Part shown: piece after piece, positions 19,914 through 38,354 of the stretch
Layout of the letters: each line of letters begins with the position of its first letter
Numbering within the stretch: the first letter of the stretch is position 1
Assembly (NCBI GenBank): GCA_016840085.1
Contig: JAEOTA010000067.1
Coordinates: forward strand, 1 to 44,140
From: Promethearchaeota archaeon
Lineage (GTDB): Archaea; Asgardarchaeota; Lokiarchaeia; Sigyniarchaeales; SOKP01
Reading direction: 5' to 3'
Length of the DNA: 44,140 nucleotides
Notes under the pieces: generated by a model
Seen by the model: only the letters and a program-made list of their open reading frames with translations
What the model was told of the DNA's origin: nothing
Databases searched by the model: none
Made by a program: the position numbers and the translations under genes

Positions 19914-22900
19914 TTAAAACCTAACCTCGCATCTATCAGAATCGCAGAATTTCTCGCCTATTGCTCTATCTCGTGTCTCATCTAAGTTGAATAGTTTAAG
20001 TTTGCTCATCATTATTTCATACTGCTCTTTAGTAATCTCCTCATAAGGTGCCTGTTTATACCCGTGTTCTTTTATTGGTAAGAAGCTCACACTCTTTAGC
20101 TTATCTTCATAACATTCAAGAACATGTTTGATTTGATTTGATTCCTCCTCTCTGAATGTGATTGTTATTGAAACTTGGTTATCAGACCAATATTTTTGAT
20201 ATGCTGCGGCATTTTCAGCTTGTTCCCAAATAGAGACTTCGTTTTTAGAGCGATCGAAATATTTCTCATGAATTGGGAACTCTGCAACTACAGTATTAGG
20301 CGAATATAAATCATCTTCAATCTTATAGCCAGCATTTTTTATAGGTTCAATTAAATCAGAATTTTTTGAGAGTCTGATTCGTCTTATATAATATTCTGAA
20401 TGAGGATAATGAATTCCAGGAGGAACACCTGGTAGAAGACTTACAGTCCCACTGGGTTTAACTGTGGTTATTTTTATAGATTTTGGAACACATAACCAAT
20501 CAGAATATGTTTCGTCTAACTCTCTTAGATAATTGTATCCTCGATCACTCCATTCTAGTATTGTTCTTCTTCCACGCTTTACAAAAGCTTCGATTATACC
20601 CGTCTGTGAAATTCCCATCCTTCGATTTTTTAACATAACAGCATTAGTTTCTTTCCAATGAGTATTGACTAATGTAACAGATTTTGAATATAAATAAGCA
20701 TACTTTAATGTATCTTGAAATTCTTCATAGGATTCATGTCTTGAGGGAAAAGTTTCAACGAGACAACAAAGTTCAAAGGATTCCAATGTCTGTTCTCCAC
20801 AATTCACAGTAAATATTATTTCTAATTTTGGTCTATCTGTTCTGGTTTTCTTTTCATTAAGTACTATTCCGTAATTGTGGTAGTTATCTACAGTGCCGTT
20901 ATACACATCTGCATTACCAATATAAACAACTGAAACAATTTTGTGGTTGCTGCATAACCCATTCGACATGAGTTGAGTAGCCATTTCACTGCGATATGGT
21001 TTTTTATGAAGTGAACGGACAGAAATCTTATTATTGGTATATCTTTTAGTAATCATATCTAGAATATATTGATAACCCCTGTAGATTCCTGCAGTTCTAA
21101 AATCATTAATACCATTTTTTTTGAGATATGTTAAAAAATCGTTTAATATAGGAATTTCATTATTATCACACACATATTCTTCAAATAATTCAACAAGTCG
21201 TTTTTGTGCAATTTTTCTTTGATTTTTACCTTTTTCTTTCATGGCTGCTCCTGCTTTTAAAGCAGAAATTTTGTTTGAGCAGGTCTGAGAACAGTAAGCT
21301 CTTTCCCTTTCTCTATACTTTACATGAAATTTAGCACCGCATAACTCACAGTATTTTACAAGCCAGATACCGTCATTAAAGATAAGCTCAAAATCACTTT
21401 CTTTTAATAGTTTAATATATTTTTTATATTCTCTCATTAATGCTGGATTTTCAAAGTGCTCAAATCCACTTTCAATGTTAGCTTTCTTAATTAGGTTGAC
21501 CAACTTTCCTCTAAATTCATCAAAGTTATGAATATATCCATGTTTTCTTGAATATTCACTCCAAGATGTAGTAGTTAAAGGAATTCCAGTTTTTTTGATT
21601 ACCGAAAGCATTTCTTTATATAATTCTTGATTTGTAAAACCAGAATATCGAGGATTATTTTCTCTTGCTGTTGCTTTAGACATTCTTTCATGATATTGCT
21701 TTTTTTCTTCTGAACTTGCATAGGGATACCAAAATCGCATGGGATTATTGTCTCCAGAAATATCATGGAGCGAATCATGTTTATCTTTTAGTAAAAGTTC
21801 GAGATTATAGATATTATTATTCAAACTATTATTATCCTTATGGTGAAGGACATATCCTGGTTCGATTTTAGTTTTATTTAATTTTTCATAAGTGAGCGTG
21901 TGTTCAAATATATTTTTTCTTCCATTATTTAATAACCAATATGGTGATTTCTTCTTATTATCTTCACTCATTATCTCTGACCAAGTAGTTTGCCACTTTG
22001 GTGTAACCATTATACTATCGTTGGATTTTAAGTCACTCGCAGATTTAAGTGAACCATTTTTCATTAAAAATTTATGATTACTGGTACATTTGATACTACT
22101 CCCGTCATCAAGATTTACTTCATATATTCTCTCGTTGAAACCTGTGATTCGAGGATTTCTCATCATGCTGATTGTTGTAATTCCTTTATCATTCTTACAA
22201 TAGACCGGGACATCTAAACCTTCCTCAGCTAATTGTTTAATAGAAATGGCGTTTCTTCCATCGACTACAGCAATTAGTGTATCACCTGTAATACAAGGAT
22301 TGACACCTGCTGCTTTTTTATCTTTATAGTTTGGTGGATCTCCCATCCTTCCATAATCTTTCGCATTTTCCAACCAAAAAACACCAGGTTCTCCATTTAC
22401 CGCAATTTGATTAGCTATAAACGAGTAGTCTAGACCTTTAACCGCAAAAACAGAATTATTACTTGCCCATCTATGGGAATATAGTGCTTCTTCATCTTGC
22501 TTACATGTGACAAAATCTAAATCTGTGGGATCACCTAAGGCGATTTCAGCTGAGCGTCTCACATTGCCGGCCACAACACATTTACCAATGTGATTCATGA
22601 TATCGACAATGTCAATAGAGGTAATTTTTTGTCCAATTTTTGCTTTTAAAATGGTTTGAATATCTTCCAACATACTTTTAAGTGGTCCTGGACCAGAAGC
22701 TATTCCTCCAAATCCTCTAATAGGCTCACCTGCGAGTCTAATCTCTGAAAAATCATAATTTGGCACCTGTTTCCCAAGGAAATATGCTTCCAATATTATT
22801 TTTAATGATTCAACCCACCCTTCTCTACTATCATGAATTTGGAAATCAAAATGACCTTCTTTAGGTTTTTTAATAGTTATCTTGTCTGCGCCTTTTGTAT

Positions 22901-23651
22901 CAAAACCCACTCCTACGCCAAGCATTAAAGCATCCATCACAAATTCAAATGCTTTTGAATATTTTAGGTTAATATCTTCGGTAGATGCGAAACCACAGTT
23001 GTTTAAAGACATAGAACCATGACGCGCAATAAATTCTGTTCCCATCATCCATAGTCCTCGACCTGGTGGTGAAAACTTGAAGTTCCAAATTTTATCAAAC
23101 ATGGTTTGAGCCGATTTTTGAGCTTTCTTATCACTCCAAGGAAGACTTAACTTCATACAATGCTCTTTTTGAATTGAATAACAACCTTCCACAACTCGCC
23201 TAATTGTTTCCCAAAAATCTTCTTTTCTGTTTTCACCTTCAATTATTCTAGCATATGTTCTTTTATATGTAATATATCCCAAAGGACCCCAGTCTGGTTG
23301 CTTTCCCTTATATTTGTTAATAAATTCTTCATCAAGTTTGAATCCAATACTTTCCAAATTAATAGCTCTCGCAAACAGATTTCTATATTTATTTAATCCG
23401 CGTTGAGTCAATTCAACACATACTAATTCCCTAATGTAATTTGTAGTAATTTCATCTATTCCAAGGCCAATTATTTTTCGAATGGCATCCTCAGCTACTT
23501 TCTCGGCAATGTGCATATCCAAGCCGGTTTCTTTGTTTAAAATTTTAGCTATGCTATTTTCATCGAACTTTTTCTTTTCACCTTTGGAATTAATGACATA
23601 CTTTGGATACAAATCTATTAACGAGAATGAATTATCAGTCATGTTACTCAT
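19914..23651 (-). CDS. nrdJ: Class II (adenosylcobalamin-dependent) ribonucleotide reductase, RTPR-like, with N-terminal ATP-cone and an intein
   Basis: VINSKGEKKKFDENSI (ATP cone), YKRTYAR, PPGRGLWMMG, LNNC, VVAGNVRRSA, NP|C..N|CGEQTL, TTVKPSGTVS, C-terminal CDSDRC. Confidence 0.93.
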   Translation of the reverse strand: MSNMTDNSFSLIDLYPKYVINSKGEKKKFDENSIAKILNKETGLDMHIAEKVAEDAIRKIIGLGIDEITTNYIRELVCVELTQRGLNKYRNLFARAINLESIGFKLDEEFINKYKGKQPDWGPLGYITYKRTYARIIEGENRKEDFWETIRRVVEGCYSIQKEHCMKLSLPWSDKKAQKSAQTMFDKIWNFKFSPPGRGLWMMGTEFIARHGSMSLNNCGFASTEDINLKYSKAFEFVMDALMLGVGVGFDTKGADKITIKKPKEGHFDFQIHDSREGWVESLKIILEAYFLGKQVPNYDFSEIRLAGEPIRGFGGIASGPGPLKSMLEDIQTILKAKIGQKITSIDIVDIMNHIGKCVVAGNVRRSAEIALGDPTDLDFVTCKQDEEALYSHRWASNNSVFAVKGLDYSFIANQIAVNGEPGVFWLENAKDYGRMGDPPNYKDKKAAGVNPCITGDTLIAVVDGRNAISIKQLAEEGLDVPVYCKNDKGITTISMMRNPRITGFNERIYEVNLDDGSSIKCTSNHKFLMKNGSLKSASDLKSNDSIMVTPKWQTTWSEIMSEDNKKKSPYWLLNNGRKNIFEHTLTYEKLNKTKIEPGYVLHHKDNNSLNNNIYNLELLLKDKHDSLHDISGDNNPMRFWYPYASSEEKKQYHERMSKATARENNPRYSGFTNQELYKEMLSVIKKTGIPLTTTSWSEYSRKHGYIHNFDEFRGKLVNLIKKANIESGFEHFENPALMREYKKYIKLLKESDFELIFNDGIWLVKYCELCGAKFHVKYRERERAYCSQTCSNKISALKAGAAMKEKGKNQRKIAQKRLVELFEEYVCDNNEIPILNDFLTYLKKNGINDFRTAGIYRGYQYILDMITKRYTNNKISVRSLHKKPYRSEMATQLMSNGLCSNHKIVSVVYIGNADVYNGTVDNYHNYGIVLNEKKTRTDRPKLEIIFTVNCGEQTLESFELCCLVETFPSRHESYEEFQDTLKYAYLYSKSVTLVNTHWKETNAVMLKNRRMGISQTGIIEAFVKRGRRTILEWSDRGYNYLRELDETYSDWLCVPKSIKITTVKPSGTVSLLPGVPPGIHYPHSEYYIRRIRLSKNSDLIEPIKNAGYKIEDDLYSPNTVVAEFPIHEKYFDRSKNEVSIWEQAENAAAYQKYWSDNQVSITITFREEESNQIKHVLECYEDKLKSVSFLPIKEHGYKQAPYEEITKEQYEIMMSKLKLFNLDETRDRAIGEKFCDSDRCEVRF
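20802..22295 (-). mobile_element. 498-aa intein with HNH homing endonuclease, inserted in the NrdJ NPCGE active-site motif
   Basis: Starts CITGDTLIAV (Cys453); block B IKCTSNHKFL; HNH HHKDNNSLNNNIYNLELL..HDSLH; Zn finger CELCG..YCSQTC; block F VYNGTVDNYHNY; ends IIFTVN before +1 Cys. Confidence 0.92.
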
Positions 23652-24173: not shown

Positions 24174-25064
24174 GTGATTAGAAAATTGGTAGTAAATAAT
24201 ACAGATCAACAACAAAACAGTCAAAATTCAGAGATAATTAAAGAAGAAATTAATTTACAATTTCATTGGTATATGCTAGCTTTTTTTATTATATATTTAG
24301 GGTCATTTTTGCTCCCTGGTGTTATTTTTATGAGTTATATAATGTTATTTTATTTACCCTATTTTTTAGAAACAAAAGATTTCATATTGCTTTTTACAGA
24401 ATTGCAACCCTTGCTCGCTTCGATTCTTATGCCCTTTATTATAGTAATCTGTTACTTAGTACATTTAATTTTAGTTGGATTAATTACGAGATGGTTATGG
24501 GGAATAACTGAGAAAAAATCTCCCTCTAAATCAGGTACTATCCCAAGAAATATCCCAAGTAAGACTTTAAATTATTATCATATTCGTAGTTTTATGATTA
24601 AATACCCGCGCAACGCAGTAAATCGAGGTCTCTTCCCTTGGTTAATTAAATGGCTTTATAATTTTGTTAAAACAAACAAAATAGGGAAAGGTACTATATT
24701 AGAAGAAAATATAGGGGCTGATAGATTTATACAAATAGGAGAAAATTCTTATTTTGGTCAGAAAGGAGCTATTAGCTCTCACGCGGTTGAAGGAATTTTT
24801 GGAAATATTTCGTATGAGAAAATAAAGATTGGAAATAATGTTACCGCCGCAACGTTTAATTGTATAGCTCCAGGAGTCAAAATTGGAAATAATTCAACAT
24901 TATTACCTATGACCGGAGCTACTAAACATAATATTTTGAAAGGAAATAATTATTATTTTGGTGCTCCGTTAAGAAAAATTTTTAAAAAAAGATTAATGGA
25001 ATATTTAAATATTACTGAAGAAGACTTAGAACGAGCAGAAAAGCTTTATAATAAACAAGAATAG
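24174..25064 (+). CDS. Membrane-bound left-handed beta-helix (hexapeptide) acyltransferase-like protein, type A
   Basis: Two N-terminal TMs, SPSKSGTIPRNIPS, IGKGT, IGENSYFG, ISSHAVEG, IGNNV, IAPGVKIG, YFGAP. Confidence 0.8.
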   Translation: MIRKLVVNNTDQQQNSQNSEIIKEEINLQFHWYMLAFFIIYLGSFLLPGVIFMSYIMLFYLPYFLETKDFILLFTELQPLLASILMPFIIVICYLVHLILVGLITRWLWGITEKKSPSKSGTIPRNIPSKTLNYYHIRSFMIKYPRNAVNRGLFPWLIKWLYNFVKTNKIGKGTILEENIGADRFIQIGENSYFGQKGAISSHAVEGIFGNISYEKIKIGNNVTAATFNCIAPGVKIGNNSTLLPMTGATKHNILKGNNYYFGAPLRKIFKKRLMEYLNITEEDLERAEKLYNKQE

Positions 25065-25115
25065 GAAGTAAAATTATAGTATAAAATCTAATAAATTGTA
25101 AAAAATCAAAAAACA

Positions 25116-26012
25116 ATGGAAAAAAATATTCAAATTGAAGAAGATGCTTTATCTGAGTTTAAAGCAGATTATACAATTGATTTTGTTACAAGTAGTGCAG
25201 TAAGTAAAATTAGTCTTAAATTTCTAATTTTTTACATACCTATTTTATGGTTTTCTGGTTACATGGCTGTTGCTGTTTTCTTTGATATTTCAAGTTTAAT
25301 AAATAATTGGATCATTACCATGTTACTCCTACCGATATGGTTATTTATGTTATATTTTATTTTTATTTTTGGAATAGCGATTTTTACAAAAGCATTTGTC
25401 CTTATAATTAATATGATACATAAACCGAGAGAAGGTGTGTTTAGAGCAGAAGAAGGGGATAAGGATTTTGAATTTTGGAGGCTCCGTGTAGAATTAAAAA
25501 AACTTGCAATATGGTTCATGAATAATGGCCCTTTACCTTGGATTGTAATGTGGGGTTTTCGTTGGTTTAATATTCATATTGACTTTACAAGCCATCTACA
25601 AGATGCGTGGGTTGATACAGATTTTATTAAATTTGGAAGAAAGGTAACTGTAGGGCAGGGAACTGTTGTAATGAGTTCAATGATTATTGGTAATTATTTA
25701 ATTATCAAGAAAATAGTTTTTGATGATTATACTGTTGTAGGGGGTGCATCAAATATCTCTCCTGGCACTATTATGGGAAAAGAATCAGTCTCAGGAGCTT
25801 TTTCCTATACTAATTACAACCAAAAATTAGATCCAGGTTGGATTTATATTGGACTACCAGCTCGAAAATATAAGCCAAATAAATATGCAGAAGAACGTAG
25901 AGATAGAATCTATAAACATGATGTAGATGAAGAAGTAAAATATGAAGTTACACAGGAAATAAATATTGATGAAGATAAAAAAAATCTTTTAAATAATAAT
26001 AAAGAGGTTTAG
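25116..26012 (+). CDS. Membrane-bound left-handed beta-helix acyltransferase-like protein, type B
   Basis: IDFVTSSAVS, two TMs, HKPREGVF..DFEFW, FGRKVTVGQG, ISPGTIMG, WIYIGLPA. Confidence 0.8.
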   Translation: MEKNIQIEEDALSEFKADYTIDFVTSSAVSKISLKFLIFYIPILWFSGYMAVAVFFDISSLINNWIITMLLLPIWLFMLYFIFIFGIAIFTKAFVLIINMIHKPREGVFRAEEGDKDFEFWRLRVELKKLAIWFMNNGPLPWIVMWGFRWFNIHIDFTSHLQDAWVDTDFIKFGRKVTVGQGTVVMSSMIIGNYLIIKKIVFDDYTVVGGASNISPGTIMGKESVSGAFSYTNYNQKLDPGWIYIGLPARKYKPNKYAEERRDRIYKHDVDEEVKYEVTQEINIDEDKKNLLNNNKEV

Positions 26013-26017
26013 TAGAG

Positions 26018-26869
26018 ATGTCAGTGCCTGCAAATATAAAAGCTGGACCGTTCACGACCCTTGTTTTATTAAAGAAAAGATACTTAATATTTTACATTTA
26101 TCTCATTTGGATAACTTTATTTACAATTCAATTCGAATTTTGGTTGTATTGGATTCTTCTTTATGATTGGAAATATATTCACTTCTTAATATTCCTTCCC
26201 CTTTTGATATTTGTAATGTATATCTCATCTGTTATAATCTCATTGATCTTTGCAAAAGTATTACTAATTATTGTAAACTTATTTCATAAACCTCGTGAAG
26301 GTGTGTTTTTAAGACATATTTCAGATAAGGATTATAGATATTGGTGTATTAGAAGTGTTATTAAAAAATGGCCACTATGGTTAGCGCATAAATTTCCTTT
26401 CCCTTTTCTAGATAATATATGTTTTAAAGCTTTTGGGGTAAAGACTAAATTTTCGAATTCGCTCTTTGAGGGATGGGTGGATACTGAATTTATTGAATTT
26501 GGAAAAAATGTGGTAATAGGGCAAGCAAGTGTTATTCAATCAGCAGTTATAATAGGTAATCTCTTAATTATACGAAAGACAATAATAGAAGAGAATGCTC
26601 GTGTAGGTGCACATTCAATTGTTATGCCTGGCAGTCATATTAGTAAAAATTGTATATTAGCAGGCACTTCTCTCACCACAATAGGGCAAAATTTAGAAGA
26701 GGGATGGATTTATTTAGGCTCTCCAGCAAAAAAGTTGAAAAGGAATTTATTTTTTGAAGATAATTTAGAAGAAATTTTAGATCGCCAAGATATTGATGAT
26801 GAAGTTTTACTCAAAAAATACGAGAGTCTCTACACTAAGAGGAAAGATAAAGAAATTAGCAAACAATAA
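26018..26869 (+). CDS. Membrane-bound left-handed beta-helix acyltransferase-like protein, type C
   Basis: MSVP..GPF, two TMs, HKPREGVF..DKDYRYW, HKFPFPFLDN, FGKNVVIGQ, VMPGSHI, WIYLGSPA. Confidence 0.8.
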   Translation: MSVPANIKAGPFTTLVLLKKRYLIFYIYLIWITLFTIQFEFWLYWILLYDWKYIHFLIFLPLLIFVMYISSVIISLIFAKVLLIIVNLFHKPREGVFLRHISDKDYRYWCIRSVIKKWPLWLAHKFPFPFLDNICFKAFGVKTKFSNSLFEGWVDTEFIEFGKNVVIGQASVIQSAVIIGNLLIIRKTIIEENARVGAHSIVMPGSHISKNCILAGTSLTTIGQNLEEGWIYLGSPAKKLKRNLFFEDNLEEILDRQDIDDEVLLKKYESLYTKRKDKEISKQ

Positions 26870-26950
26870 TTTGATAGTTTTTTTGGAAAAAACTATAATC
26901 TATTTTTTATTGGGAATAGTTTTAAAGAAAATAGCTTGAAAGGGAAAAAA

Positions 26951-27745
26951 ATGAAAATTGGTTATATTCAAACATCTCCAATTTTTGGAGAAAAGGAGAA
27001 AAATTTTAAAGAAATTGAAAAATTAACAAATGATCTGAAAGCAGATCTAATTGTATTACCTGAATTATTTGCAACAGGATATACATTTATTTCAAAGAAG
27101 GAAGTTGAATCTTTAGCAGAAGGTACTAATGAAGAAACCGCTCACTTTATGATTGATTTATCAAAAAAGACTAATTCTATAATCGTTGGAGGATTTATTG
27201 AGGCTGAAAATAACGAGATCTTCAATTCCGCGATGATTGTATCAAATTCAAAAGTATTGGGAACATATCGTAAAATTCATTTATATTATAAGGAAAAATT
27301 ATGGTTTTCGCCAGGAAATCAACCTCTTCGAATATTTAAAGTTAATGGAGTCAATATTGGGATAATAATTTGTTTTGATTGGATCTTTCCAGAAATTTCC
27401 CGAACATTAGCACTTCTTGGAGCAGATATAATAGCTCATCCCGCTAATTTAGTGCTTCCTTATTGTCAAAATGCTATGATTACTCGATCTATTGAGAATA
27501 GAATATTTACTGTAACTTCAAATAGAATTGGTGAAGAAAAAAGAGGTGTTGATGATTTTAAATTTACAGGAAAAAGCCAAATAACTTCATTTAAAGGAGA
27601 AATTTTATCTTCAGCTCCTAAGGATAAAATTTTTATAGACTTTGTAGATATAGATATCTCTAAGACCAGAGATAAAAAATTAAATGAATTTAATGATTTA
27701 TTTGAAGACCGACGAGAGAATTATTACTATAACATTCGAAATTAA
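26951..27745 (+). CDS. Carbon-nitrogen hydrolase (nitrilase superfamily amidase)
   Basis: E-K-C triad in LPELFATGY, YRKIHL and ICFDWIFPE; ATG at 26951. Confidence 0.92.
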   Translation: MKIGYIQTSPIFGEKEKNFKEIEKLTNDLKADLIVLPELFATGYTFISKKEVESLAEGTNEETAHFMIDLSKKTNSIIVGGFIEAENNEIFNSAMIVSNSKVLGTYRKIHLYYKEKLWFSPGNQPLRIFKVNGVNIGIIICFDWIFPEISRTLALLGADIIAHPANLVLPYCQNAMITRSIENRIFTVTSNRIGEEKRGVDDFKFTGKSQITSFKGEILSSAPKDKIFIDFVDIDISKTRDKKLNEFNDLFEDRRENYYYNIRN

Positions 27746-27850
27746 AAATAAAGAAAAAAGCGCTCTTCTGGTCATAAAAAGTGTAATGAAAGATAAACGA
27801 TTCAATCAAAATAAGTTATGATTAAATAGAATTTTGGATTAATTATATCT

Positions 27851-28321
27851 ATGAAAGTGATAAAACTACCACATATGAGCGAGGATGAAATAAACACAGC
27901 TATCAACTCTCAGAATTTATGTAGAATTGCGTTCATTGATGATAAATATCCTTATATCTCTCCTTTTCAATATGTTAGTATTAATAATATTTTATATTTC
28001 CATTTCACTGACTATGGAAAAAAAAAGAAAATTCTTTCAAATAATCCTAATGTTTGCGTTTCAATTGAAAATTTTAAATCTGACTTAAGCAGTTATTATT
28101 TTATTTCAATACAAGGTAAGTTAGAATTAGTGGAAGATAATGATCTTAAAAATAAAGTTATGAGACAAATGGCAGAGTTAGCACGGAAAAATTATTCAAA
28201 AAACTTTCTTTCAGCTCATGGTTTTGAAAAGAAAGAGGAATGGGACGTATTAACATCAAAAAATCAAACTATTTATAAACTTGTAGTCATGAATAAGCCA
28301 ATTGGCCTAAAATCTTTTTAA
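27851..28321 (+). CDS. Pyridoxamine 5'-phosphate oxidase-like FMN-binding split-barrel protein (NimA-like)
   Basis: CRIAF..YPYISP..LYFH..GKKKKILSNNPNVCVSI..SIQGKLELV. Confidence 0.85.
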   Translation: MKVIKLPHMSEDEINTAINSQNLCRIAFIDDKYPYISPFQYVSINNILYFHFTDYGKKKKILSNNPNVCVSIENFKSDLSSYYFISIQGKLELVEDNDLKNKVMRQMAELARKNYSKNFLSAHGFEKKEEWDVLTSKNQTIYKLVVMNKPIGLKSF

Positions 28322-28407
28322 TAATTATCTTAAATTAATCTTATTAAATTTTTTTTAAATTTCAAGCGATAAAATAAAAAAAAAATTTAAGAAAAAATTT
28401 TTTGAAA

Positions 28408-29226
28408 TTATTCAGGCTGTAATATCCCTGAAAAAGCCAACCATGCTAATAATGATTTTGCTACTAAACTTAGTATTATATATACTCGTTCACCGAAAAG
28501 ATAATCTTTCCATGGTCCCACTGCTTTATATTGAAGTATCATATTAATCGCAAATGAATTGAATAGAATCAGATATGTATAAAATATCCAGTACACAAAA
28601 TCAGGGATACCCTCAGCAGCTACACCATAAAAGTAGCCAAGAATAACTATCCAAGGAATAGCACCAGATATACATCCTATTATGAAAGGCTTCCAATTAG
28701 TTTTTTCCGTATATTGATTAACTAATTCCATCATGTAACCAAACATTATCATCATAGCATTCAATACAAAAATCATGACTAATGACCAGAAATCCCAGAC
28801 ACCAAAAAGTAATGAGAGAAATACAATCATAACTGAACTAGAAAAAGCATACTCGTACCAACGATAGGGATTAAAACCTTTCTTTAGATTATTATTGTAT
28901 CTTTCATTCAATGGATATGCAATTAAAAAATGAGCTAAAGCAGACATTAATAAAAATGAAGCAAGCACAGCCCCAAAGTATGAAACTGTAAATAATACCT
29001 CTGGATTTGGAAATATATTAAATGTATCAGGATCAATAAATTCATAAGACAAATAAAATGTATAAATATCTCTAGAAAAATCTAAAATAAGTCCTACAGT
29101 CAACATTAATATTCCTTGTATTAAATGAAGGATTCCCATGTTTCTGTTAAATTTTTGTAAGTATTCGAATGTAATATCTGATTTCGCGATAATTTCTTGT
29201 CGTTCTTTATAATTCATTTTAACCAT
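28408..29226 (-). CDS. Heliorhodopsin
   Basis: Seven TMs; ILHLIQG, SALAHF, NPYRWYEYAFSSSVM (counterion Glu), YLFGERVYIILSLVAKSLLAW (retinal-binding Lys). Confidence 0.95.
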   Translation of the reverse strand: MVKMNYKERQEIIAKSDITFEYLQKFNRNMGILHLIQGILMLTVGLILDFSRDIYTFYLSYEFIDPDTFNIFPNPEVLFTVSYFGAVLASFLLMSALAHFLIAYPLNERYNNNLKKGFNPYRWYEYAFSSSVMIVFLSLLFGVWDFWSLVMIFVLNAMMIMFGYMMELVNQYTEKTNWKPFIIGCISGAIPWIVILGYFYGVAAEGIPDFVYWIFYTYLILFNSFAINMILQYKAVGPWKDYLFGERVYIILSLVAKSLLAWLAFSGILQPE

Positions 29227-29508
29227 TTTTTCATTTTTTTATTATTAGATTTTATAATTTTAATTAACCCAAGAATAGATTTAAATAGTTCCTATAAAAA
29301 TTATTAAATTTTCATAAGAATTATTTTTAGAAATAATTGAAAACTCTATGATTTTTAATATTTCATTAATAATGCTCAAACTTTAAATAAATAACATCTC
29401 TACAAATATTTTATTTATAATTTAAATAAATAAAGATTAAATACAGATCCAGTATATCAAGCTTAAGCTTATATCTTAAAACAAAATAATTAAGCTTTAG
29501 TGAAAAAA

Positions 29509-29910
29509 ATGGCTTTAGAAATAAATTGGTTAGCAGTTGTAGTTGTATCTTTAATATTTTTTGCGATACTTTTTTTCTGGTATTTTCCATCTGCGTTTGG
29601 AAATATGTGGTTAAAATTAGTCGGAAAAGAAAGTGAACCTAAATCTAAAATAATAAGAGATACAATTATCATGATTCCAACGAGTTTTTTAACAGTACTT
29701 GTTATTGATATAATAATGATTATGGCAGGTATTACGGATATTTTATCAGCAGTATTGATAAATTTATTGCTATGGGTTGGCTTTTTAGCTACGATCGGAA
29801 TTAATCAAACAAATTTTAACGATAGAGGTTTAAATTTATTTCTTATAGAATACGTTGTGTATCTCGTTTGTTTTCTAATTTCTGGTATTATTTTAGTAGT
29901 TTGGGTATAA
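29509..29910 (+). CDS. DUF1761-like four-TM membrane protein
   Basis: INWLAVVV..FFWY.PSAFGNMWLKLVG..LLWVGF..LFLIE..Y pattern. Confidence 0.7.
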   Translation: MALEINWLAVVVVSLIFFAILFFWYFPSAFGNMWLKLVGKESEPKSKIIRDTIIMIPTSFLTVLVIDIIMIMAGITDILSAVLINLLLWVGFLATIGINQTNFNDRGLNLFLIEYVVYLVCFLISGIILVVWV

Positions 29911-30057
29911 AATTTAATTCCATTTTTTTTTAATTTCTTTTTGAAAATCCTTTTAATATTTATTTTAAGCTCTAATTAGAAGTTAGAATAAATGAAATAT
30001 GATTAAAAGAAATAAAAGTAAGAAAAATTAAAACGCTTTTGAGGAGCATTTCATGAT

Positions 30058-30618
30058 TTAAAGATGTTCTACAATACCATATAATCCTGAAATAGGGTCT
30101 TGAAACATAGGTAAATGCGGTGGAATATATGTAAATAATATGAAAATGATTCCTAATGCTATAAAAATTATCCATGAGAAAATTATTGCCAATTTTGGTA
30201 ATTCGGATATAGTTAATATTTTATAGCTTATTAATTGACCAACAACAACTCCAACTATAAAGGAAAGAATATCTATAATCAAAATTTCTGTTTTAAAAAT
30301 AGCAGTATATGTATAAAATGTAATTATTATAATTACTATGCTTAATAATACAGCTACAGTCTTTCCAACAATAAAATTATTTGCTTGTTCTTTTATAAAT
30401 TGATACTCAATTAATGCAAAGATTATAAGTGGCCAATAGGGTAATTTTAAATGCTCCCAAACACTTTCATTTACAGGAAAAAATCCTCCTATATATTCCC
30501 AGTGCCCTAGCCATTCAAAAACAAAATGAAATAAAGCACCTACGATGGTTATAAAAATAATGCCGAAAATTTCCCATTTCAATATCGAATTTTTCAATAT
30601 GATCACTCGTTTTATCAA
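30058..30618 (-). CDS. Conserved membrane protein (DUF6512-like)
   Basis: GALFHFVFEW, PVNESVWEHLKL, FTYIPPHLPMFQDP..G.YG; start uncertain (TTG). Confidence 0.7.
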   Translation of the reverse strand: MIKRVIILKNSILKWEIFGIIFITIVGALFHFVFEWLGHWEYIGGFFPVNESVWEHLKLPYWPLIIFALIEYQFIKEQANNFIVGKTVAVLLSIVIIIITFYTYTAIFKTEILIIDILSFIVGVVVGQLISYKILTISELPKLAIIFSWIIFIALGIIFILFTYIPPHLPMFQDPISGLYGIVEHL

Positions 30619-30844
30619 AATAAAAATATTGCAATTTAATTGGATTTTAATTTAAATAATAAATATTTTAAATACAATATATCCAATTAAATAAGATAAG
30701 ATACAATTAAAATAACTTAGGTTTATTGGCTATAAATTAAACTTATTTTAACTTAATTTATGCAATATATATTTTAAGTCTTTTTATATTTTAAAACTTT
30801 TTTAGGGAAAAGTTCTAAATACTTTAATATCTAATAATTAAATT

Positions 30845-31852
30845 ATGCAAGCTGCTATTTATGATGGAAAGGAACTCCTCATCAAGGAAGTTTCTAATCC
30901 AAAAATTTCTGATACCCAAGCTCTTATTCGGGTTAGAGCTGCTGGAGTATGTGGCACTGATTTAGCTATAGTAAATGGTTCTTTACAGACGCCTACTCCT
31001 ATTATTCTCGGTCATGAGTTTTCGGGTGATGTTGTAGAGATAGGGGATGATGTTGATCCTAAGTGGCTTAATAAAAAAGTTACTTCTGAAATAAATAGCA
31101 ATATTGATTTTAATTGCTTTTATTGTAAGCAAAAGCAATACACTCAATGCATTTCACGAAAAGCATTAGGAATAGATATTGATGGAGCATTTGCAGAATA
31201 TATCGCTGTGGAATCTTATTTATTGCATGAAGTTCCTGAAACTATTTCATATGAAAAAGCTACTTTTATCGAGCCTTTAGCCGCAGCATATCAGATATTT
31301 GAAATGATGCCTTTAGAAGAAAATGATAAGACAATTACAATATTCGGTCTTGGTAAATTGGGGTTATTAATTACCCAAATTGCATTTTTAAAAGGTTTAA
31401 ACTTAATTGTTGTGGATGGATCTCATAAAAAGCTCAATTTGGCTAAAAAATTTGGAGCTCAACATCAAATAAATAGATTTGATGGTGTTAATATCGCTGA
31501 TACAATTAAAACGTATACTAATGGTTTAGGTGCTGATATAGTGGTTGATGCAACCGGTAATCCTCTAGCAGTAAATGATGTGCTTGCTTCATGTAGAACT
31601 CGAGGTAAGATCCATATAAAAAGTACGCATGGAGTTAATACACCCATTAATTTAACAGATCTAGTTGTTCGTGAATTAACTTTATATAGTAGTAGATGTG
31701 GACCATTTAAAAAAGCTATTAATGGATTAAAATCCGGAGAAATTGAAGTTGAGAAATTAATCTCAAAAAAATTTGATTTAAAAGATATTAAAAAAGCATT
31801 AAATTTTCATATGAAAAACCCAGAATATATTAAAGCAATAATTCGAATATAA
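30845..31852 (+). CDS. Zinc-dependent MDR alcohol dehydrogenase (threonine/sorbitol dehydrogenase-like)
   Basis: GVCGTD, LGHEFSG, DGAFAEY, IEPLAAA, IFGLGKLG. Confidence 0.9.
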   Translation: MQAAIYDGKELLIKEVSNPKISDTQALIRVRAAGVCGTDLAIVNGSLQTPTPIILGHEFSGDVVEIGDDVDPKWLNKKVTSEINSNIDFNCFYCKQKQYTQCISRKALGIDIDGAFAEYIAVESYLLHEVPETISYEKATFIEPLAAAYQIFEMMPLEENDKTITIFGLGKLGLLITQIAFLKGLNLIVVDGSHKKLNLAKKFGAQHQINRFDGVNIADTIKTYTNGLGADIVVDATGNPLAVNDVLASCRTRGKIHIKSTHGVNTPINLTDLVVRELTLYSSRCGPFKKAINGLKSGEIEVEKLISKKFDLKDIKKALNFHMKNPEYIKAIIRI

Positions 31853-31870
31853 ATTATATAAAGATTATTT

Positions 31871-33682
31871 ATGGTAAAAACTGAATTGCAATCGATTGAA
31901 AGTGTTTCAAAAGAAGAAGATATAAGAGAAGAGGTTAAACTTCAGTATTTTTGGTATTTATTTGTTTTTTTTACAATATACTTAGTCTCATTTTTAGTTC
32001 CGGCAATTTTGTTTATAACTTATATCTTTTTATTTTTTTTACCCCATTTTTTAGAAAGTACAAGTTTTTTTACACTTTTTACTGAGTTTAAATCCCTAAT
32101 GGTATTAATTTCCACGCCATTTGTTATTATCGGTTGTTATCTTATCCGATTGTTTTTCGTGGGGTTGGTCACACGTGGTTTTTGGAGTCTTAGTGAAAAA
32201 AAATCACCAAGTAAAAGCGGGATAATACCAAGAAATATTCCAAGTAAAGCATTGAATTACTATCATATTAAAAGTTTTATGATAAAATATGGAAAAAACA
32301 CTTTTGTAAAAGGACCTTTTCCTTGGCTCTCTAATTGGTTTTTTAACTTTGTGGGATCAAGTAAAATTGGTAAGGGTACAACCTTAGAAGAAAGTATAAT
32401 GAATGATAAATTCATAAATGTAGATAAGAACTGTTATTTTGGAGTAAATTCTGCTTTAGCAAGCCATTTGGTGGATGGAACTTTTGGAAATATTAATTAT
32501 TTCAAAATATATATAGGAAATAATGTTACAAGTGCAGGATTGAATCTGATTGGGCCAGGATCAGAGGTACATGATAATTCATATTTACTTCCGTTAGCAT
32601 CAACTCCAAAACATAGTATGCTTAAAGGAAATAATTACTATTGGGGGTTACCATTAAGAAGAATCTTTAGAAAAAAGATCTTGAAATTTTTAGGCTTGAC
32701 GCCTAAGAATTTAGAGATAAATGAAAATATTGAGGGATATAAAGATAAAAATTTGTTGAAAGAGTTAAAAGCTAAGAAAACATTGGCCCAATCCCATAAT
32801 AAAGTAGGAAATAACCAAGTAATTAATAATTCTCACGAGGATAAAATTGATCTGAATAATTTAACAGAGAAGGATTTGACAATTGATTTCACAACAAGTA
32901 GTGCAATTTCAAGAATAAATATAAAATTCTTAGTGGTCTATATTCCAATTTTTTGGCTATCTGGCATGATAGTTAATATTATTTTTTATACCTTTACATA
33001 TTATGTACAGAACTGGATTTTAATGGCTTTTTTTTTACCAGCAATGATCATATTTATATGGTTTATTTTCATACTCGGTTGTTTCTTTTTTAGTAAATTA
33101 TTTTTAATATTAGTTAATCTCATTCATAAACCCAAAGAAGGAATATTTAAAGCTGATATTGGTGACACAGATTTTGAATTTTGGTGTTTACGAACTGAAT
33201 TAAAAAAAATAGTTTTTTGGCTTATACGAAATTGGCCTCTTCCTTGGATGGATATATTGGCTTTCAAATGGTTTGGGGTAAAAATGTCTTTATCCAGTTC
33301 GTTATACGATTCCTGGTGTGATGGAGAATTCATTACATTTGGCAGGCGTGTACTTATAGGTCAAGGCTCTACTATTATGTCGAGCATGGTAATTGGCCGA
33401 TATTTGATTATAAAGAATGTAATATGCGGAGATTATTCACTTGTAGGTGGACATACCACAATAGCTCCAGGCACTATTATAGGGGAAGATACTTTCGTTA
33501 GCGCAATTTCAAACACCTTATACAATCAAATTCTTGAACCTGGATGGATCTATCTGGGAATACCCGTCATTAAACTTAAAGAAAATAAATATGCTAAAGA
33601 AAGAAGAGATATAATAATGAAAAGAGATGTAGATGAAGAACAAAAGTTCGAAATCGAGCATGAAGTAAACGTTGATAAATAA
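31871..33682 (+). CDS. Membrane-bound left-handed beta-helix protein, A+B fusion (cluster 2)
   Basis: N-half matches type A (SPSKSGIIPRNIPS, LASHLVDG); C-half matches type B (IDFTTSSAIS, HKPKEGIF..DFEFW). Confidence 0.82.
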   Translation: MVKTELQSIESVSKEEDIREEVKLQYFWYLFVFFTIYLVSFLVPAILFITYIFLFFLPHFLESTSFFTLFTEFKSLMVLISTPFVIIGCYLIRLFFVGLVTRGFWSLSEKKSPSKSGIIPRNIPSKALNYYHIKSFMIKYGKNTFVKGPFPWLSNWFFNFVGSSKIGKGTTLEESIMNDKFINVDKNCYFGVNSALASHLVDGTFGNINYFKIYIGNNVTSAGLNLIGPGSEVHDNSYLLPLASTPKHSMLKGNNYYWGLPLRRIFRKKILKFLGLTPKNLEINENIEGYKDKNLLKELKAKKTLAQSHNKVGNNQVINNSHEDKIDLNNLTEKDLTIDFTTSSAISRINIKFLVVYIPIFWLSGMIVNIIFYTFTYYVQNWILMAFFLPAMIIFIWFIFILGCFFFSKLFLILVNLIHKPKEGIFKADIGDTDFEFWCLRTELKKIVFWLIRNWPLPWMDILAFKWFGVKMSLSSSLYDSWCDGEFITFGRRVLIGQGSTIMSSMVIGRYLIIKNVICGDYSLVGGHTTIAPGTIIGEDTFVSAISNTLYNQILEPGWIYLGIPVIKLKENKYAKERRDIIMKRDVDEEQKFEIEHEVNVDK

Positions 33683-33713
33683 AAAAGAGATCTTATCAAA
33701 AAACTATCATATT

Positions 33714-34109
33714 TTATTCTGTATTCAATTGAAATTCTGTCTTTAAGAAACTCTTTAACTTTTGACAGGTTTTCTTTAATTCTTGCTTATCTTGATAAAA
33801 AAGGTTAGTTCTAGGACAATCTTTATCAAAAACGCATTTTTTCTGAATAAAATCATAAATTAAAGGATAAAATCTGCATCCTTGAGGGCGATATTGATAA
33901 ACTTTACACGTCTTAGACATAAAATCTAAAAATACACAATATTTTGAATCATTTTTTAGTTGATAAAATTGATTTTGATTTTTAAATACAAAATCTTTCA
34001 TTTTTAATTTCTTAGGGAAATTATCTATTATTAAATCAATATCTTGTTGAGATACAATCATTTCTGTCCGGATACAACATTCTCCGCAATTTTGACAATT
34101 GTTTTCCAT
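33714..34109 (-). CDS. YkgJ/CxxCxxCC family Fe-S or Zn cluster protein
   Basis: CQNCGECC, YCVFLD..CKVYQYRPQGCRFYP, C..DKDCP. Confidence 0.88.
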   Translation of the reverse strand: MENNCQNCGECCIRTEMIVSQQDIDLIIDNFPKKLKMKDFVFKNQNQFYQLKNDSKYCVFLDFMSKTCKVYQYRPQGCRFYPLIYDFIQKKCVFDKDCPRTNLFYQDKQELKKTCQKLKSFLKTEFQLNTE

Positions 34110-34242
34110 AGTAAATTATTATTTTTGCTTAAATCTCATAAATTTTAAAGGAAGGAAAATATCTATTAAAATATAATAAACATCAATTGCTTTTTAATTA
34201 AGTAAAAATTACATAAATTTGAATTAAGAATTTAATGCAAAA

Positions 34243-36126
34243 ATGAACGCGGAAGACAAAGAAACTGAGCCACCTGATTCCAATGAGATTAATAATGATA
34301 CTTTAAAAGAAGAAGTAAGTCTACAATTTCATTTGTATATTTTCATTTTTGCTATAATTTATTATGTATCATGGGTAGTGCCTGGATTTATCTTTTGGTT
34401 ATATTTTTTTATACCTTTTCGCATTTTTTTTTTAGAAAATCTTGGATTTATATCAATTTTTACTGATTTTAAATCGTTGATATCTCTTTTATTTATGCCA
34501 TTAGTTATTATATTGTGCTATTTACTTCACTTATTGCTGATAGGGTTGATAACAAGACTTATATGGAAAATTACGGAAAGAATATCTCCATCGAAATCAG
34601 GAATTATCCCACGAAATATAAGAAGCAGAGCAGCAAATTACTATCATATCAGGAGTTTTATGATAAAGTACGGTAAAAACACTTTTAATAAGGGTATATT
34701 TCCATGGTTATCTAATTGGTTTTATAATTTTGTGGGATCAAACAAAATTGGAAAAGGCACAACCTTTGAGGAGTCCGTAGGTATGGATAAATTTATAGAT
34801 ATTGGTGAAAATTGTTATATTGGAGTAAATACAACTTTAGCGAGCCATCTCATTCAAGGGATCTTCGGTAATATCTCCTATTTTAAAATTAAAGTTGGCA
34901 ATAATGTAACATCAGCTGCATTGGGCAATATTGGTCCGGGAAGTGAGGTTTTTGAAGATACATATCTATTACCTCTAGCTTCAACACCGAAACATAGTAT
35001 AATAAAGGGAGGAAAAAACTTTTATTGGGGAATACCATTAAGAAAAATATTTAGAAAGAAGATTATGCAATACTTAGGCTTGTCCCCTAAAGAATTAGAG
35101 AAAAATGAAAATATAGAAGGGTATAAAGATAAAAAATTATTAAAGCAATTGAAAGAGAAAGAAAGTATAGTAGAGAAAACAGATGAGATTCCTAATAACA
35201 CACAAATGTTGGATACCCTACAAGAAGAAAAAATAGATATTGATACTCTAACAAGAGAAGATTTGGCGATTGATTTCACTACTAGTTCTGCGATAAGTAG
35301 AGTAAATGCAAAGTTCTTATTGGTCTACATACCAATATTTTGGGTTTCAGGTTTAATTATTACCATCCTATGGTATTGGTATTCTGAGGATATAATTAAT
35401 GGATATTCAATAAGATTTCATTTACCGTTTTTTCTTTTTTTTCCAGTAATGCTATTTGGATTGCTATACATCTTTATACTAGCGTGTATTCTTTTCAGTA
35501 AATTACTTTTAATAGTAGTAAATCTAATTCATAAACCTAAAGAGGGCGTTTTTAAAGCGAAAATAGGAGACACAGATTTCGAATTCTGGATGTTAAGAAC
35601 TCAAATAAAGAAAATTTCTTTATGGCTTTTACGGAATTCACCATTACCATGGACGGATGAATTAGCTTTTAAGCAGCTAGGAGTTGATATGGATTTTTCA
35701 AGCCATTTAGCTGATACGTGGTGTGACTCTGAATTTATTAAATTAGGTCGTAAAGTGATGATCGGACAGGGGGCAACCATTATGTCTTCAATGGTTGTTG
35801 GAAAATATTTATTAATTAAGAAAGTTTTTTTTGATGACTATGTTATGGTTGGAGGACAGACTTCAATTGCTCCAGGAACTATTATAAAAAAAGAATCTGT
35901 AATTGGAGCAATTAGTTCAACAACCTATGATCAAGTTCTAAAGCCTGGTTGGATTTATTTTGGTATACCTGCTAGAGAATTGAAAGAAAATAAGTACTCT
36001 GAAGAGAGAAGAGATATTCTCATTAAACGTCAAGTGGATGAGGCAAAAAAATTTGAAGTTTTGCATGAAGTAAATATAGATGAAGATAAAAAAGATTTAA
36101 TAAAAACTCAAAAAGAAGAGATGTAA
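34243..36126 (+). CDS. Membrane-bound left-handed beta-helix protein, A+B fusion (cluster 3)
   Basis: Colinear paralog of the 31871 ORF, including the linker NENIEGYKDK.LLK.LK. Confidence 0.82.
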   Translation: MNAEDKETEPPDSNEINNDTLKEEVSLQFHLYIFIFAIIYYVSWVVPGFIFWLYFFIPFRIFFLENLGFISIFTDFKSLISLLFMPLVIILCYLLHLLLIGLITRLIWKITERISPSKSGIIPRNIRSRAANYYHIRSFMIKYGKNTFNKGIFPWLSNWFYNFVGSNKIGKGTTFEESVGMDKFIDIGENCYIGVNTTLASHLIQGIFGNISYFKIKVGNNVTSAALGNIGPGSEVFEDTYLLPLASTPKHSIIKGGKNFYWGIPLRKIFRKKIMQYLGLSPKELEKNENIEGYKDKKLLKQLKEKESIVEKTDEIPNNTQMLDTLQEEKIDIDTLTREDLAIDFTTSSAISRVNAKFLLVYIPIFWVSGLIITILWYWYSEDIINGYSIRFHLPFFLFFPVMLFGLLYIFILACILFSKLLLIVVNLIHKPKEGVFKAKIGDTDFEFWMLRTQIKKISLWLLRNSPLPWTDELAFKQLGVDMDFSSHLADTWCDSEFIKLGRKVMIGQGATIMSSMVVGKYLLIKKVFFDDYVMVGGQTSIAPGTIIKKESVIGAISSTTYDQVLKPGWIYFGIPARELKENKYSEERRDILIKRQVDEAKKFEVLHEVNIDEDKKDLIKTQKEEM

Positions 36127-36131
36127 AGATT

Positions 36132-37073
36132 ATGAGTGTTCCAAATACAATGAGAGTTGGACCATTTATCTCACAAGTATTAGTGAAAAAGAGATATTTG
36201 ATTTTTTATTTTTTATTAATTTGGATAAGTATAATTCCATTACTTTTGGAATTTTGGGTTTATTGGAGGTTATTATGGGATTATGATAGACCAGTTCATT
36301 TTTATACCTTTCTTCCACTTCTCTTTTTTGGAATGTATGTATCTATCGTATTTTTTTCAATTTTTTTTGCAAAAATCTTACTATTTATTATTAATGCAAT
36401 ACATAAACCTCGAGAAGGCATATTCCTACGAATTCCAGAAGATAAGGATTATAGATACTGGAGTCTTCGCAATACCATTAAACGATGGCCAATATGGCTT
36501 GCTCATAAATTTCCTTTTCCTTTCTTAGATAATATCTGCTTTAAAGCTTTTGGTGTTAAAACGAAATTTTCGAACTCACTCTTTGAAGGATGGGTTGATA
36601 CTGAATTTATAGAATTTGGTAAGGATGTTGTGGTAGGACAAGGTGCTATTGTTCAATCTGCAGTAATAATTGGGAATTTACTGATAATTAGAAAAACAGT
36701 TATTGAAGATAATGTAAGAATAGGCTCTCATGCAATTGTTATGCCAGGTACTCATATAGGTAAAAATTCAATATTAGCAGCAAATTCAGTAACTACTGTA
36801 GGGCAAATCTTAGAAAAAAAATGGGTGTATGTTGGGATTCCCGCAAAACAATTCAAGAAAAATTATTTCTTTGAAGATGGATTGGAGGATAAGATAGGAC
36901 AAGTTGAAGATGTAGAAGCACTAAGAGAAAAATATGAGGAGATTTATACAAAGCGTTATGATGAGCTAACTCTAAAAGAACGTAGAGAACTTAAAAAAGA
37001 AAAGAAAGAAGAAGAAAAGAAACGATTAGAATCTGAGGAATATGACATTTTTGATGACGGTTTTAATATATAA
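36132..37073 (+). CDS. Membrane-bound left-handed beta-helix protein, type C (cluster 3)
   Basis: Paralog of the 26018 ORF; long identical block WLAHKFPFPFLDNICFKAFGVKTKFSNSLFEGWVDTEFIEFGK. Confidence 0.82.
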   Translation: MSVPNTMRVGPFISQVLVKKRYLIFYFLLIWISIIPLLLEFWVYWRLLWDYDRPVHFYTFLPLLFFGMYVSIVFFSIFFAKILLFIINAIHKPREGIFLRIPEDKDYRYWSLRNTIKRWPIWLAHKFPFPFLDNICFKAFGVKTKFSNSLFEGWVDTEFIEFGKDVVVGQGAIVQSAVIIGNLLIIRKTVIEDNVRIGSHAIVMPGTHIGKNSILAANSVTTVGQILEKKWVYVGIPAKQFKKNYFFEDGLEDKIGQVEDVEALREKYEEIYTKRYDELTLKERRELKKEKKEEEKKRLESEEYDIFDDGFNI

Positions 37074-37090
37074 AAATTACTATAGATTTC

Positions 37091-37798
37091 TCATTTCAAG
37101 ATAAAATACATTCTTCGATTATTTTTTCCTTTATTTACTGTTTTAGTTACTTCTATTTTACCAATCTCGTTTAGGTGGTTAATATGAGTTCCACCATCCA
37201 CCTGTTCATCAATATCTCCTATTTTGACAATACGAAATTCTTTAATATTTTCAGGTAATCCTGCCGCTAAGCGAGCTAATTCAGGTTTTCCTAAAACTTC
37301 TTCTTTTGACATATAATCAATTGTAATAGGTAAATCTTGTTCTATAATTCTATTAGCTTCATCTACATAAGATCGTAATTTTTCTGGAGAATAATCGATC
37401 ATTGAAAAATCCATTCTCGTTTTATCAAGTTCAATTTGGTTGCCAGTAATTTTTGCGTTAGCTCTTTTATAAAGAATATTTGATATAAGATGGGAAGCTG
37501 TATGATAACGCATATAAGTATATCTTCTTTCCCAATTAAGTTCACAAGATACCTCATCTCCTTCTTTTAATCCAGCCTTATCGATTTCGTGGCTAATCCT
37601 ACCTGCGAATTTACCAACATACACAACTTTGAATTTCTCATCATCTTTAATTATATATCCTTCGTCCCAAGGTTGACCGCCTCCTTTAGGATAAAAAGCA
37701 GTTTTATCAAGGATAATATACTTACCATCTTTAACACTTGAAACTTTAGCTTTCCAAGTCTTTAAATAGCTATCATCCATATATAATGCTCTTACCAT
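37091..37798 (-). CDS. alaXM: Alanyl-tRNA editing protein AlaX-M
   Basis: LYMDDSYL, TAFYPKGGGQPWDEG, MRYHTASH, ITGNQI, VDGGTH, NKGKNNRRMY; GGAG upstream context. Confidence 0.9.
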   Translation of the reverse strand: MVRALYMDDSYLKTWKAKVSSVKDGKYIILDKTAFYPKGGGQPWDEGYIIKDDEKFKVVYVGKFAGRISHEIDKAGLKEGDEVSCELNWERRYTYMRYHTASHLISNILYKRANAKITGNQIELDKTRMDFSMIDYSPEKLRSYVDEANRIIEQDLPITIDYMSKEEVLGKPELARLAAGLPENIKEFRIVKIGDIDEQVDGGTHINHLNEIGKIEVTKTVNKGKNNRRMYFILK

Positions 37799-38169: not shown

Positions 38170-38354
38170 ATTAAAATAACACTGAATTGGATTTTTATAA
38201 GTTATTTCTATGAATTAGAAAACTGTTTGATTTTATTAATATCTTTAATAAGTTTTTCTTAAAGATAATAAATAAATTAGAAGTTTTGTATAATTATTTA
38301 TATTGAATAATCGATAGTTATTATTATTTAAAAATCTTTTAAATTGTGAATTCT

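Follow-up and report, generated by a model that had tools for sequence, protein, structure and literature searches.

Six genes located between positions 24174 and 37073 of a 44,140-nucleotide stretch of DNA (contig JAEOTA010000067.1 from a Promethearchaeota archaeon of the class Lokiarchaeia; the whole stretch is referred to below as the window) encode membrane proteins built from left-handed beta-helix (LbH) units of three types, designated A, B and C. We consider it likely that these proteins are pseudo-threefold, membrane-anchored LbH acyltransferases, which would assemble into A+B+C rings with one active site each and would use acyl-CoA as the donor. The evidence that carries this reading is the homology and common layout of the units, natural fusions that join units of different types, a histidine found only in A, and the joint occurrence of A and C across genomes. 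The window has a G+C content of about 29% and belongs to an assembly of 4.68 Mb that is 98.8% complete; the nearest homologues carry the labels Promethearchaeota or Lokiarchaeota.

All six open reading frames lie on the forward strand, and an end-to-end alignment of the units, for which the two fusion proteins were cut at their linker and added to the four single-unit proteins, confirms the earlier count of eight homologous units, made from the sequence alone. The first three genes encode A1 (24174-25064, 296 aa), B1 (25116-26012, 298 aa) and C1 (26018-26869, 283 aa), each with two transmembrane (TM) helices followed by an LbH domain; A1 and B1 are separated by 51 bp, and B1 and C1 by 5 bp. 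Further downstream are the A-B fusions AB2 (31871-33682, 603 aa, four TM helices and two LbH domains) and AB3 (34243-36126, 627 aa), the latter followed after 5 bp by C3 (36132-37073, 313 aa), a second type-C unit. Identity between units is 50-65% within a type, about 35% between B and C, and about 20% between A and either of the others. The units are homologous rather than similar by chance, since BLASTP comparisons give E-values of 6e-11 for A1 against C3 and 2e-57 for B1 against C1.

Each unit opens with two hydrophobic segments, in agreement with the proposed two-helix hairpin, and the closing Y-x-G-x-P motif is present in 8 of 8 units. The hexapeptide coils are recovered by the PF00132 profile at 27 bits or more in five of the six proteins, which together with the predicted LbH fold places the set in the LbH acyltransferase superfamily; the coils of B1 are matched by NCBIfam LbH families only. 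The strand motif HKPREGVF, ascribed by the sequence-only reading to every unit, is exact as HKP(R/K)EG(V/I)F in types B and C (as HKPREGVF itself in B1 and C1), but at the aligned place type A has SPSKSGxIP (SPSKSG in A1). The claim that the types are always ordered A-B-C also holds in part. The window runs A-B-C, A-B, A-B-C, but AB2 has no C of its own, its next neighbour being a minus-strand gene for a cysteine-cluster protein, and C3 is probably a third subunit shared by AB2 and AB3. Beyond the window the rule fails: a C-A fusion followed by B is present elsewhere in the same genome, other genera have the order A-A-A-B-C, and sister families have two genes only.

Natural fusions between unlike units argue for the proposed A+B+C heterotrimer. 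The A-B form is the commonest (438 matches, about 620 aa), the C-A fusion followed by B is encoded on contig 51 of the same genome, and a single-chain C-A-B protein of 797 aa (P0241) is found in Promethearchaeota metagenome-assembled genomes (MAGs). The cyclic order A>B>C is kept in every fusion, as expected if the end of one unit must reach the start of the next around a ring. In the contig 51 set (L001 7370-9836), a paralogous set in permuted order, the gene for the 529-aa C-A fusion overlaps one for a 299-aa B-like protein; the set is convergent with an MFS_2 transporter gene and belongs to the same subfamily as P0241.

The distribution of a single histidine likewise separates A from the other types. 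One column of the LbH domain holds histidine in 6 of 6 A units, serine in B and alanine in C; in the window the residue corresponds to His203 of A1 (codon 24780-24782, the candidate catalytic residue), His199 of AB2 (32465-32467) and His202 of AB3 (34846-34848), all on the forward strand, and AB3 His202 is invariant in 60 AB orthologues. The same column holds histidine in the third unit of 16 of 16 Pls proteins and in the middle unit of 5 of 5 bacterial three-unit proteins (described below), while the other units of both groups have it rarely or never. The histidine of A aligns, weakly (E 0.07-0.3), with that of the 'ATH' of maltose O-acetyltransferase 6ag8, which we take to be the catalytic base His113, and with that of the 'LH' of 3hjj. 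In this type of enzyme the catalytic histidine lies on the coil ahead of the 'GNNVWIG' turn. Full-length family models of the maltose and galactoside O-acetyltransferases score far under their own cut-offs on the window proteins, and the best Foldseek matches are the maltose/galactoside O-acetyltransferases and AntD.

The AlphaFold2 model of AB3 (pLDDT 68.9, pTM 0.67) and that of P0241 (pLDDT 78.4, pTM 0.81), the latter built on an alignment of fusions only, agree on the layout of the unit. Read by DSSP, the order is in both cases TM-TM-strand-helix-helix-LbH, and the three-unit chain of P0241 is predicted with confidence as a single body. In a published AlphaFold model of the PosA terminal domain, the six membrane helices are bent, three LbH prisms of five turns each are arranged with approximate threefold symmetry, and in every repeat a strand and two helices link the hairpin to the prism (PMC10522769). 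The layout of the Asgard units agrees with this description, and the counts at the histidine column give one histidine-bearing unit in three, as in Pls.

Joint occurrence was assessed in one set of 301 genomes of the phylum. A-type genes are present in 67 of 68 genomes of family f1, 7 of 7 of family f2 and the one genome of family f5, and C-type genes in 68 of 68, 7 of 7 and 1 of 1, respectively; A and C occur together in 76 of the 77 positive genomes. The remaining 28 families gave generic LbH noise only, apart from one cluster that is likely mis-binned or transferred, and the system, rather than being Asgard-wide, is limited to a single Lokiarchaeial lineage of class level. The cluster in question (G253:C82:3157-7944, family f26) is an A-B-C cluster 64% identical to that of the window; the relatives of its genome have none, and it is a case of bin contamination or lateral transfer. 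Within the genus of the window the usual layout is an A, B, C set followed by two or three A-B genes and a single C, and the genomes have 8-19 units each. On a divergent branch, family f6, the locus G309:C57:4426-7606 holds two fusion frames of 532 and 520 aa, with four units in all.

The sequence-only reading likened A+B+C to the six-helix pseudo-trimer that contains the three tandem acyltransferase-like domains (C1-C3) of the poly-lysine synthetase Pls. It expected similarity to the Pls C domains and joint occurrence of the types; the similarity is seen, and A and C do co-occur. TIGR02353, the family of this terminal domain, is the top NCBIfam match for the B and C units with the membrane part included; residues 29-242 of C1, for example, match profile positions 5-215 (E 1e-11, 43.7 bits). 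The best score reached, 44.6 bits for AB3, is about a tenth of the curated cut-off of 423.1 bits, which places the proteins outside the family, and that cut-off was passed by no match anywhere in the whole genome. Three tandem hairpin-plus-LbH repeats in one chain are found among the Asgard set in P0241 only, the window proteins holding one or two units each. The P-x-x-G-x-aromatic strand motif is common to the Asgard units, Pls and the bacterial three-unit proteins. The system would work like a split Pls terminal domain, yet lies outside the Pls family.

To place the units we used a tree of 80 of them, comprising Asgard A, B and C, five bacterial three-unit proteins, and 16 Pls/PosA proteins split into their three repeats. 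The Asgard units fall on one side (support 97) and the Pls units on the other (98), and the units of the three-unit proteins group together (92) as the sister group of the Asgard units (98). A constraint that unites the histidine-bearing units of all three lineages in a single clade lowers the log-likelihood by 69 units and is rejected by the approximately unbiased (AU) test (p 0.0019). The tree and the test indicate that A, B and C are not orthologous to C1, C2 and C3, and they rule out an ancestral triplication common to the Asgard system and Pls. Judged from these sequence comparisons, the likeness to Pls is homology of the unit combined with convergent triplication and specialisation. The AT-rich Asgard sequences could have introduced compositional attraction into this tree; Pls sequences from Bacteroidota still group with the other Pls units. 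The analogy with the six-helix Pls pseudo-trimer stands for the architecture and fails for the history of the units, A/B/C having arisen independently of C1/C2/C3, and for dosage, which is not 1:1:1.

Several Asgard families encode a B/C-like gene, here called X (families f2, f3 and f5), which falls in the B/C clade (97). For this reason a combination of A and X, presumably 1:2, looks ancestral in the tree, with X having split later into B and C. Duplications of A are lineage-specific, which together with the unequal dosage suggests exchangeable catalytic A subunits on common scaffolds.

The following mechanism would account for these observations. Each unit would insert its two-helix hairpin with both ends in the cytoplasm; the basic residues ahead of TM1 and behind TM2 predict a cytoplasmic location for the LbH domains. 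A ring with one unit of each type, supplied as three chains or as A-B plus C, could pack its prisms in the manner of a classical LbH trimer, which would sit on the cytoplasmic side of the six bundled membrane helices. With a general-base histidine in A only, such a ring would have a single active site at an interface of A, and the degenerate B and C would provide a scaffold or binding surfaces. One common B and/or C might serve several A or A-B paralogues, which would thereby act as isoenzymes.

With regard to the donor, the six proteins match no adenylation (PF00501) or carrier (PF00550) family, in line with the earlier statement that these domains are missing from the window. There are 25 PF00501 genes in the genome and none on the contig of the window, and PF00550 has no match in the whole 98.8%-complete genome, on which ground a carrier-protein route was rejected. 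Acyl-CoA, one of three donors proposed in the sequence-only reading, is most likely and is adopted as the default, since the genome has no carrier domain and its AMP-binding genes lie elsewhere; a carrier is unlikely given the absence of PF00550, and aminoacyl-tRNA is without support. The acceptor is probably membrane-bound or membrane-crossing, and our best guess is that a glycolipid or lipid-linked glycan is acylated on its sugar or polyol head group. One bacterial three-unit relative clusters with genes for GT1, RmlA-like, RmlD-like, short-chain dehydrogenase/reductase (SDR) and GMC oxidoreductase proteins, and a second has an SDR in the same chain; by analogy, these contexts and the operon partners described below point weakly to acylation of sugar or polyol head groups.

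A number of observations weigh against this interpretation. The dosage in the window is unequal (3 A, 3 B and 2 C), genus g9 has A-A-A-B-C, families f2 and f5, and likewise f3, have A and one X gene only, and the two adjacent two-unit fusions of family f6 do not fit a simple trimer. The alignments that place the histidine of A on solved acetyltransferases are weak (E 0.07-0.3), and some LbH enzymes work without a histidine base. The pTM of 0.81 speaks for the fused relative P0241 only and lends the predicted trimeric packing of the window proteins indirect support. Finally, outside family f1 (in f2 and f3) the neighbours are housekeeping genes, and the hints regarding the acceptor come from few loci.

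Among the alternatives is a carrier-independent polymer synthase: working in the manner of the terminal domain of Pls/PosA, the ring would join one activated monomer after another (aminoacyl-tRNA, aminoacyl- or acyl-CoA, or acyl-phosphate) and pass the product through its bundle of six helices. We regard this as unlikely. In its favour, TIGR02353 outscores the other curated families on the B and C units and covers their membrane part, the layout and the rule of one histidine-bearing unit are as in Pls, and a gene for AlaX is a syntenic neighbour of the cluster; but the TIGR02353 scores are a tenth of the cut-off, the units are not orthologous to C1-C3, the cluster has no adenylation gene (the 25 AMP-binding genes lying off this contig) and the genome no carrier domain. 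Moreover, AlaX, a general editing factor, is read from the other strand, and among the stand-alone bacterial relatives the nearest lies in a sugar-modification cluster. A more specific form of the idea, in which the system is a Lokiarchaeia-specific, carrier-independent relative of the Pls polymerases that makes and exports a novel membrane-associated polymer or a heavily acylated surface molecule, appears distinctly unlikely to us; if it were true, the choice of monomer would lie with exchangeable catalytic A subunits, and the export bundle would consist of common B and C subunits.

A, B and C might instead be three independent membrane LbH homotrimers, brought together by tandem duplication only, as could be supposed from the homotrimeric nature of the classical LbH enzymes, the unequal gene numbers, and a solo A-like gene on contig 2. 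Such an arrangement is very improbable: B and C lack the histidine, the A-B, C-A and C-A-B fusions tie unlike units together in a single polypeptide, a threefold ring cannot be closed by a homotrimer of two-unit fusions, and the co-occurrence of A and C is nearly complete. It is extremely improbable that the proteins form a non-catalytic or non-acyltransferase LbH assembly, such as a gamma-carbonic-anhydrase-like or structural membrane module of the kind present in mitochondrial complex I. The best PDB sequence matches of C3 are the gamma-carbonic anhydrase subunits of complex I, and NCBIfam gamma-carbonic anhydrase families match down to E 7e-8, but those matches span generic LbH coils only. 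The zinc-binding histidine triad of gamma-carbonic anhydrases is taken here as H...H-x4-H; H-x4-H is not seen in the units, and type C has instead a conserved G-S-H...P-G-T-H (H-x8-H). In addition, type A has a histidine that aligns weakly with that of the acetyltransferases and keeps the G-x-P-x-x-K end motif, and the fold search puts acetyltransferases first. We retain the membrane-anchored acyltransferase as the preferred interpretation.

The genes surrounding the six are partly conserved. A CN_hydrolase amidase of the nitrilase superfamily (26936-27745, forward strand), nearest to an archaeal nitrilase, begins 66 bp after C1 and follows the C-type gene in 6 of 6 loci checked from two genera; it is a likely operon partner of A1-B1-C1. 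A zinc-dependent medium-chain dehydrogenase of the polyol/threonine-dehydrogenase type (30845-31852, forward strand) ends 18 bp before AB2 and adjoins the system in both genera examined, its nearest relatives being scyllo-inosose, threonine and idonate dehydrogenases. Between the two AB genes a CxxCxxCC (PF03692) cysteine-cluster protein is encoded on the reverse strand (33714-34109), at the same position in 6 loci of two genera, and AlaX (37091-37798, reverse strand) follows C3. The order common to the two genera is ribonucleotide reductase ... A(n)-B-C - CN_hydrolase - Zn-dehydrogenase - CxxCxxCC(-) - A-B - C - AlaX(-). In genus g9 the amidase and the dehydrogenase come after C with gaps of 6 and 20 bp, and because they are adjacent there, the block that separates them in the window (27851-30618) has the look of inserted DNA or of a variable part of the cluster. 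This block encodes a PNPOx-like protein, a heliorhodopsin (28408-29226, reverse strand), and DUF1761 and DUF6512 proteins. Upstream of A1, a class II (B12-dependent) ribonucleotide reductase of 1245 aa (19914-23651, reverse strand) is interrupted by an intein with an HNH endonuclease domain (Pfam Intein_splicing 464-927, HNH_3 596-621); its orthologues in g9 are 84% identical, in two blocks. An unrelated leucine-rich-repeat protein of 348 aa with six LRR_4 stretches (38346-39392, forward strand) is encoded downstream of AlaX.

Besides the contig 51 set, two further groups of paralogs are present in the genome. Contig 9 (L002 8279-11490) carries an older pair, a B-like unit that has kept the histidine and a C-like unit, followed after a gap of 4-9 bp by a 531-aa soluble double calcineurin-like phosphoesterase. 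This three-gene order is kept in four genomes of the genus and, by analogy, recalls the association of LpxA/LpxD with LpxH. A 780-aa frame in genome G001 that might be taken for an LbH-phosphoesterase fusion results from reading through a stop codon; the genes themselves are distinct. The solo gene on contig 2 (L003 6874-7683) encodes a divergent A-like unit with histidine and has no B or C neighbour; it is flanked by an MFS_1 transporter gene and an ADP-forming acyl-CoA synthetase-like gene (Succ_CoA_lig, CoA_binding).

The occurrence of a Pls/PosA-type architecture as separable genes, with the putatively catalytic A set apart from degenerate B and C, amounts to a natural dissection of this machine. 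The membrane domain of the poly-lysine and poly-ornithine synthetases has no solved structure in our PDB searches: sequence and profile searches and Foldseek returned soluble LbH chains only (TMq at most 0.16). A literature search for a cryo-EM structure of Pls or for an Asgard membrane LbH system yielded only the PosA paper, the one model-based description that we found (PMC10522769), and no paper describing the Asgard A/B/C family; an ESM Atlas look-up returned the family's own members only. An arrangement with one presumed active unit and two presumed scaffolds evolved on three occasions (the Asgard lineage, the bacterial three-unit proteins, Pls), and this recurrence suggests a genuine constraint, probably a single path for the substrate in each ring. 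With regard to Asgard biology, the genes represent a multi-copy, strongly conserved and lineage-restricted membrane enzyme system, which could produce a lipid or surface modification distinctive of Lokiarchaeia.

In comparison with known systems, the Asgard proteins share with Pls/PosA a repeat composed of a two-TM hairpin, a P-x-x-G-x-aromatic strand, two helices and a five-turn LbH, the predicted combination of three units into one pseudo-threefold body, and the retention of the histidine in one unit only. They differ in having no adenylation or carrier domains, in the distribution of units over separate chains or two-unit fusions, and in an archaeal host with no polymer product known for the set. 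The bacterial three-unit proteins (650-690 aa; P0309, P0315, P0380 and P0382, and the SDR fusion P0345, from Elusimicrobiota, Planctomycetales and Omnitrophota MAGs) also consist of three hairpin-plus-LbH units without adenylation or carrier domains and keep the histidine in one unit only; they are single chains with shorter units, the histidine in the middle unit and a triplication of their own. The maltose/galactoside O-acetyltransferases and AntD provide the best structural and sequence match for the LbH part and have the closing G-x-P-x-x-K in common with it, whereas they are soluble, have three identical active sites per homotrimer, and lack the membrane hairpin, strand motif and helical pair. 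The gamma-carbonic anhydrase module of plant and protist mitochondrial complex I is an LbH heterotrimer of diverged subunits on a membrane complex, but its active site is of another type, it has no self-anchoring hairpins, and it shows no specific sequence relation to the Asgard proteins beyond the coils.

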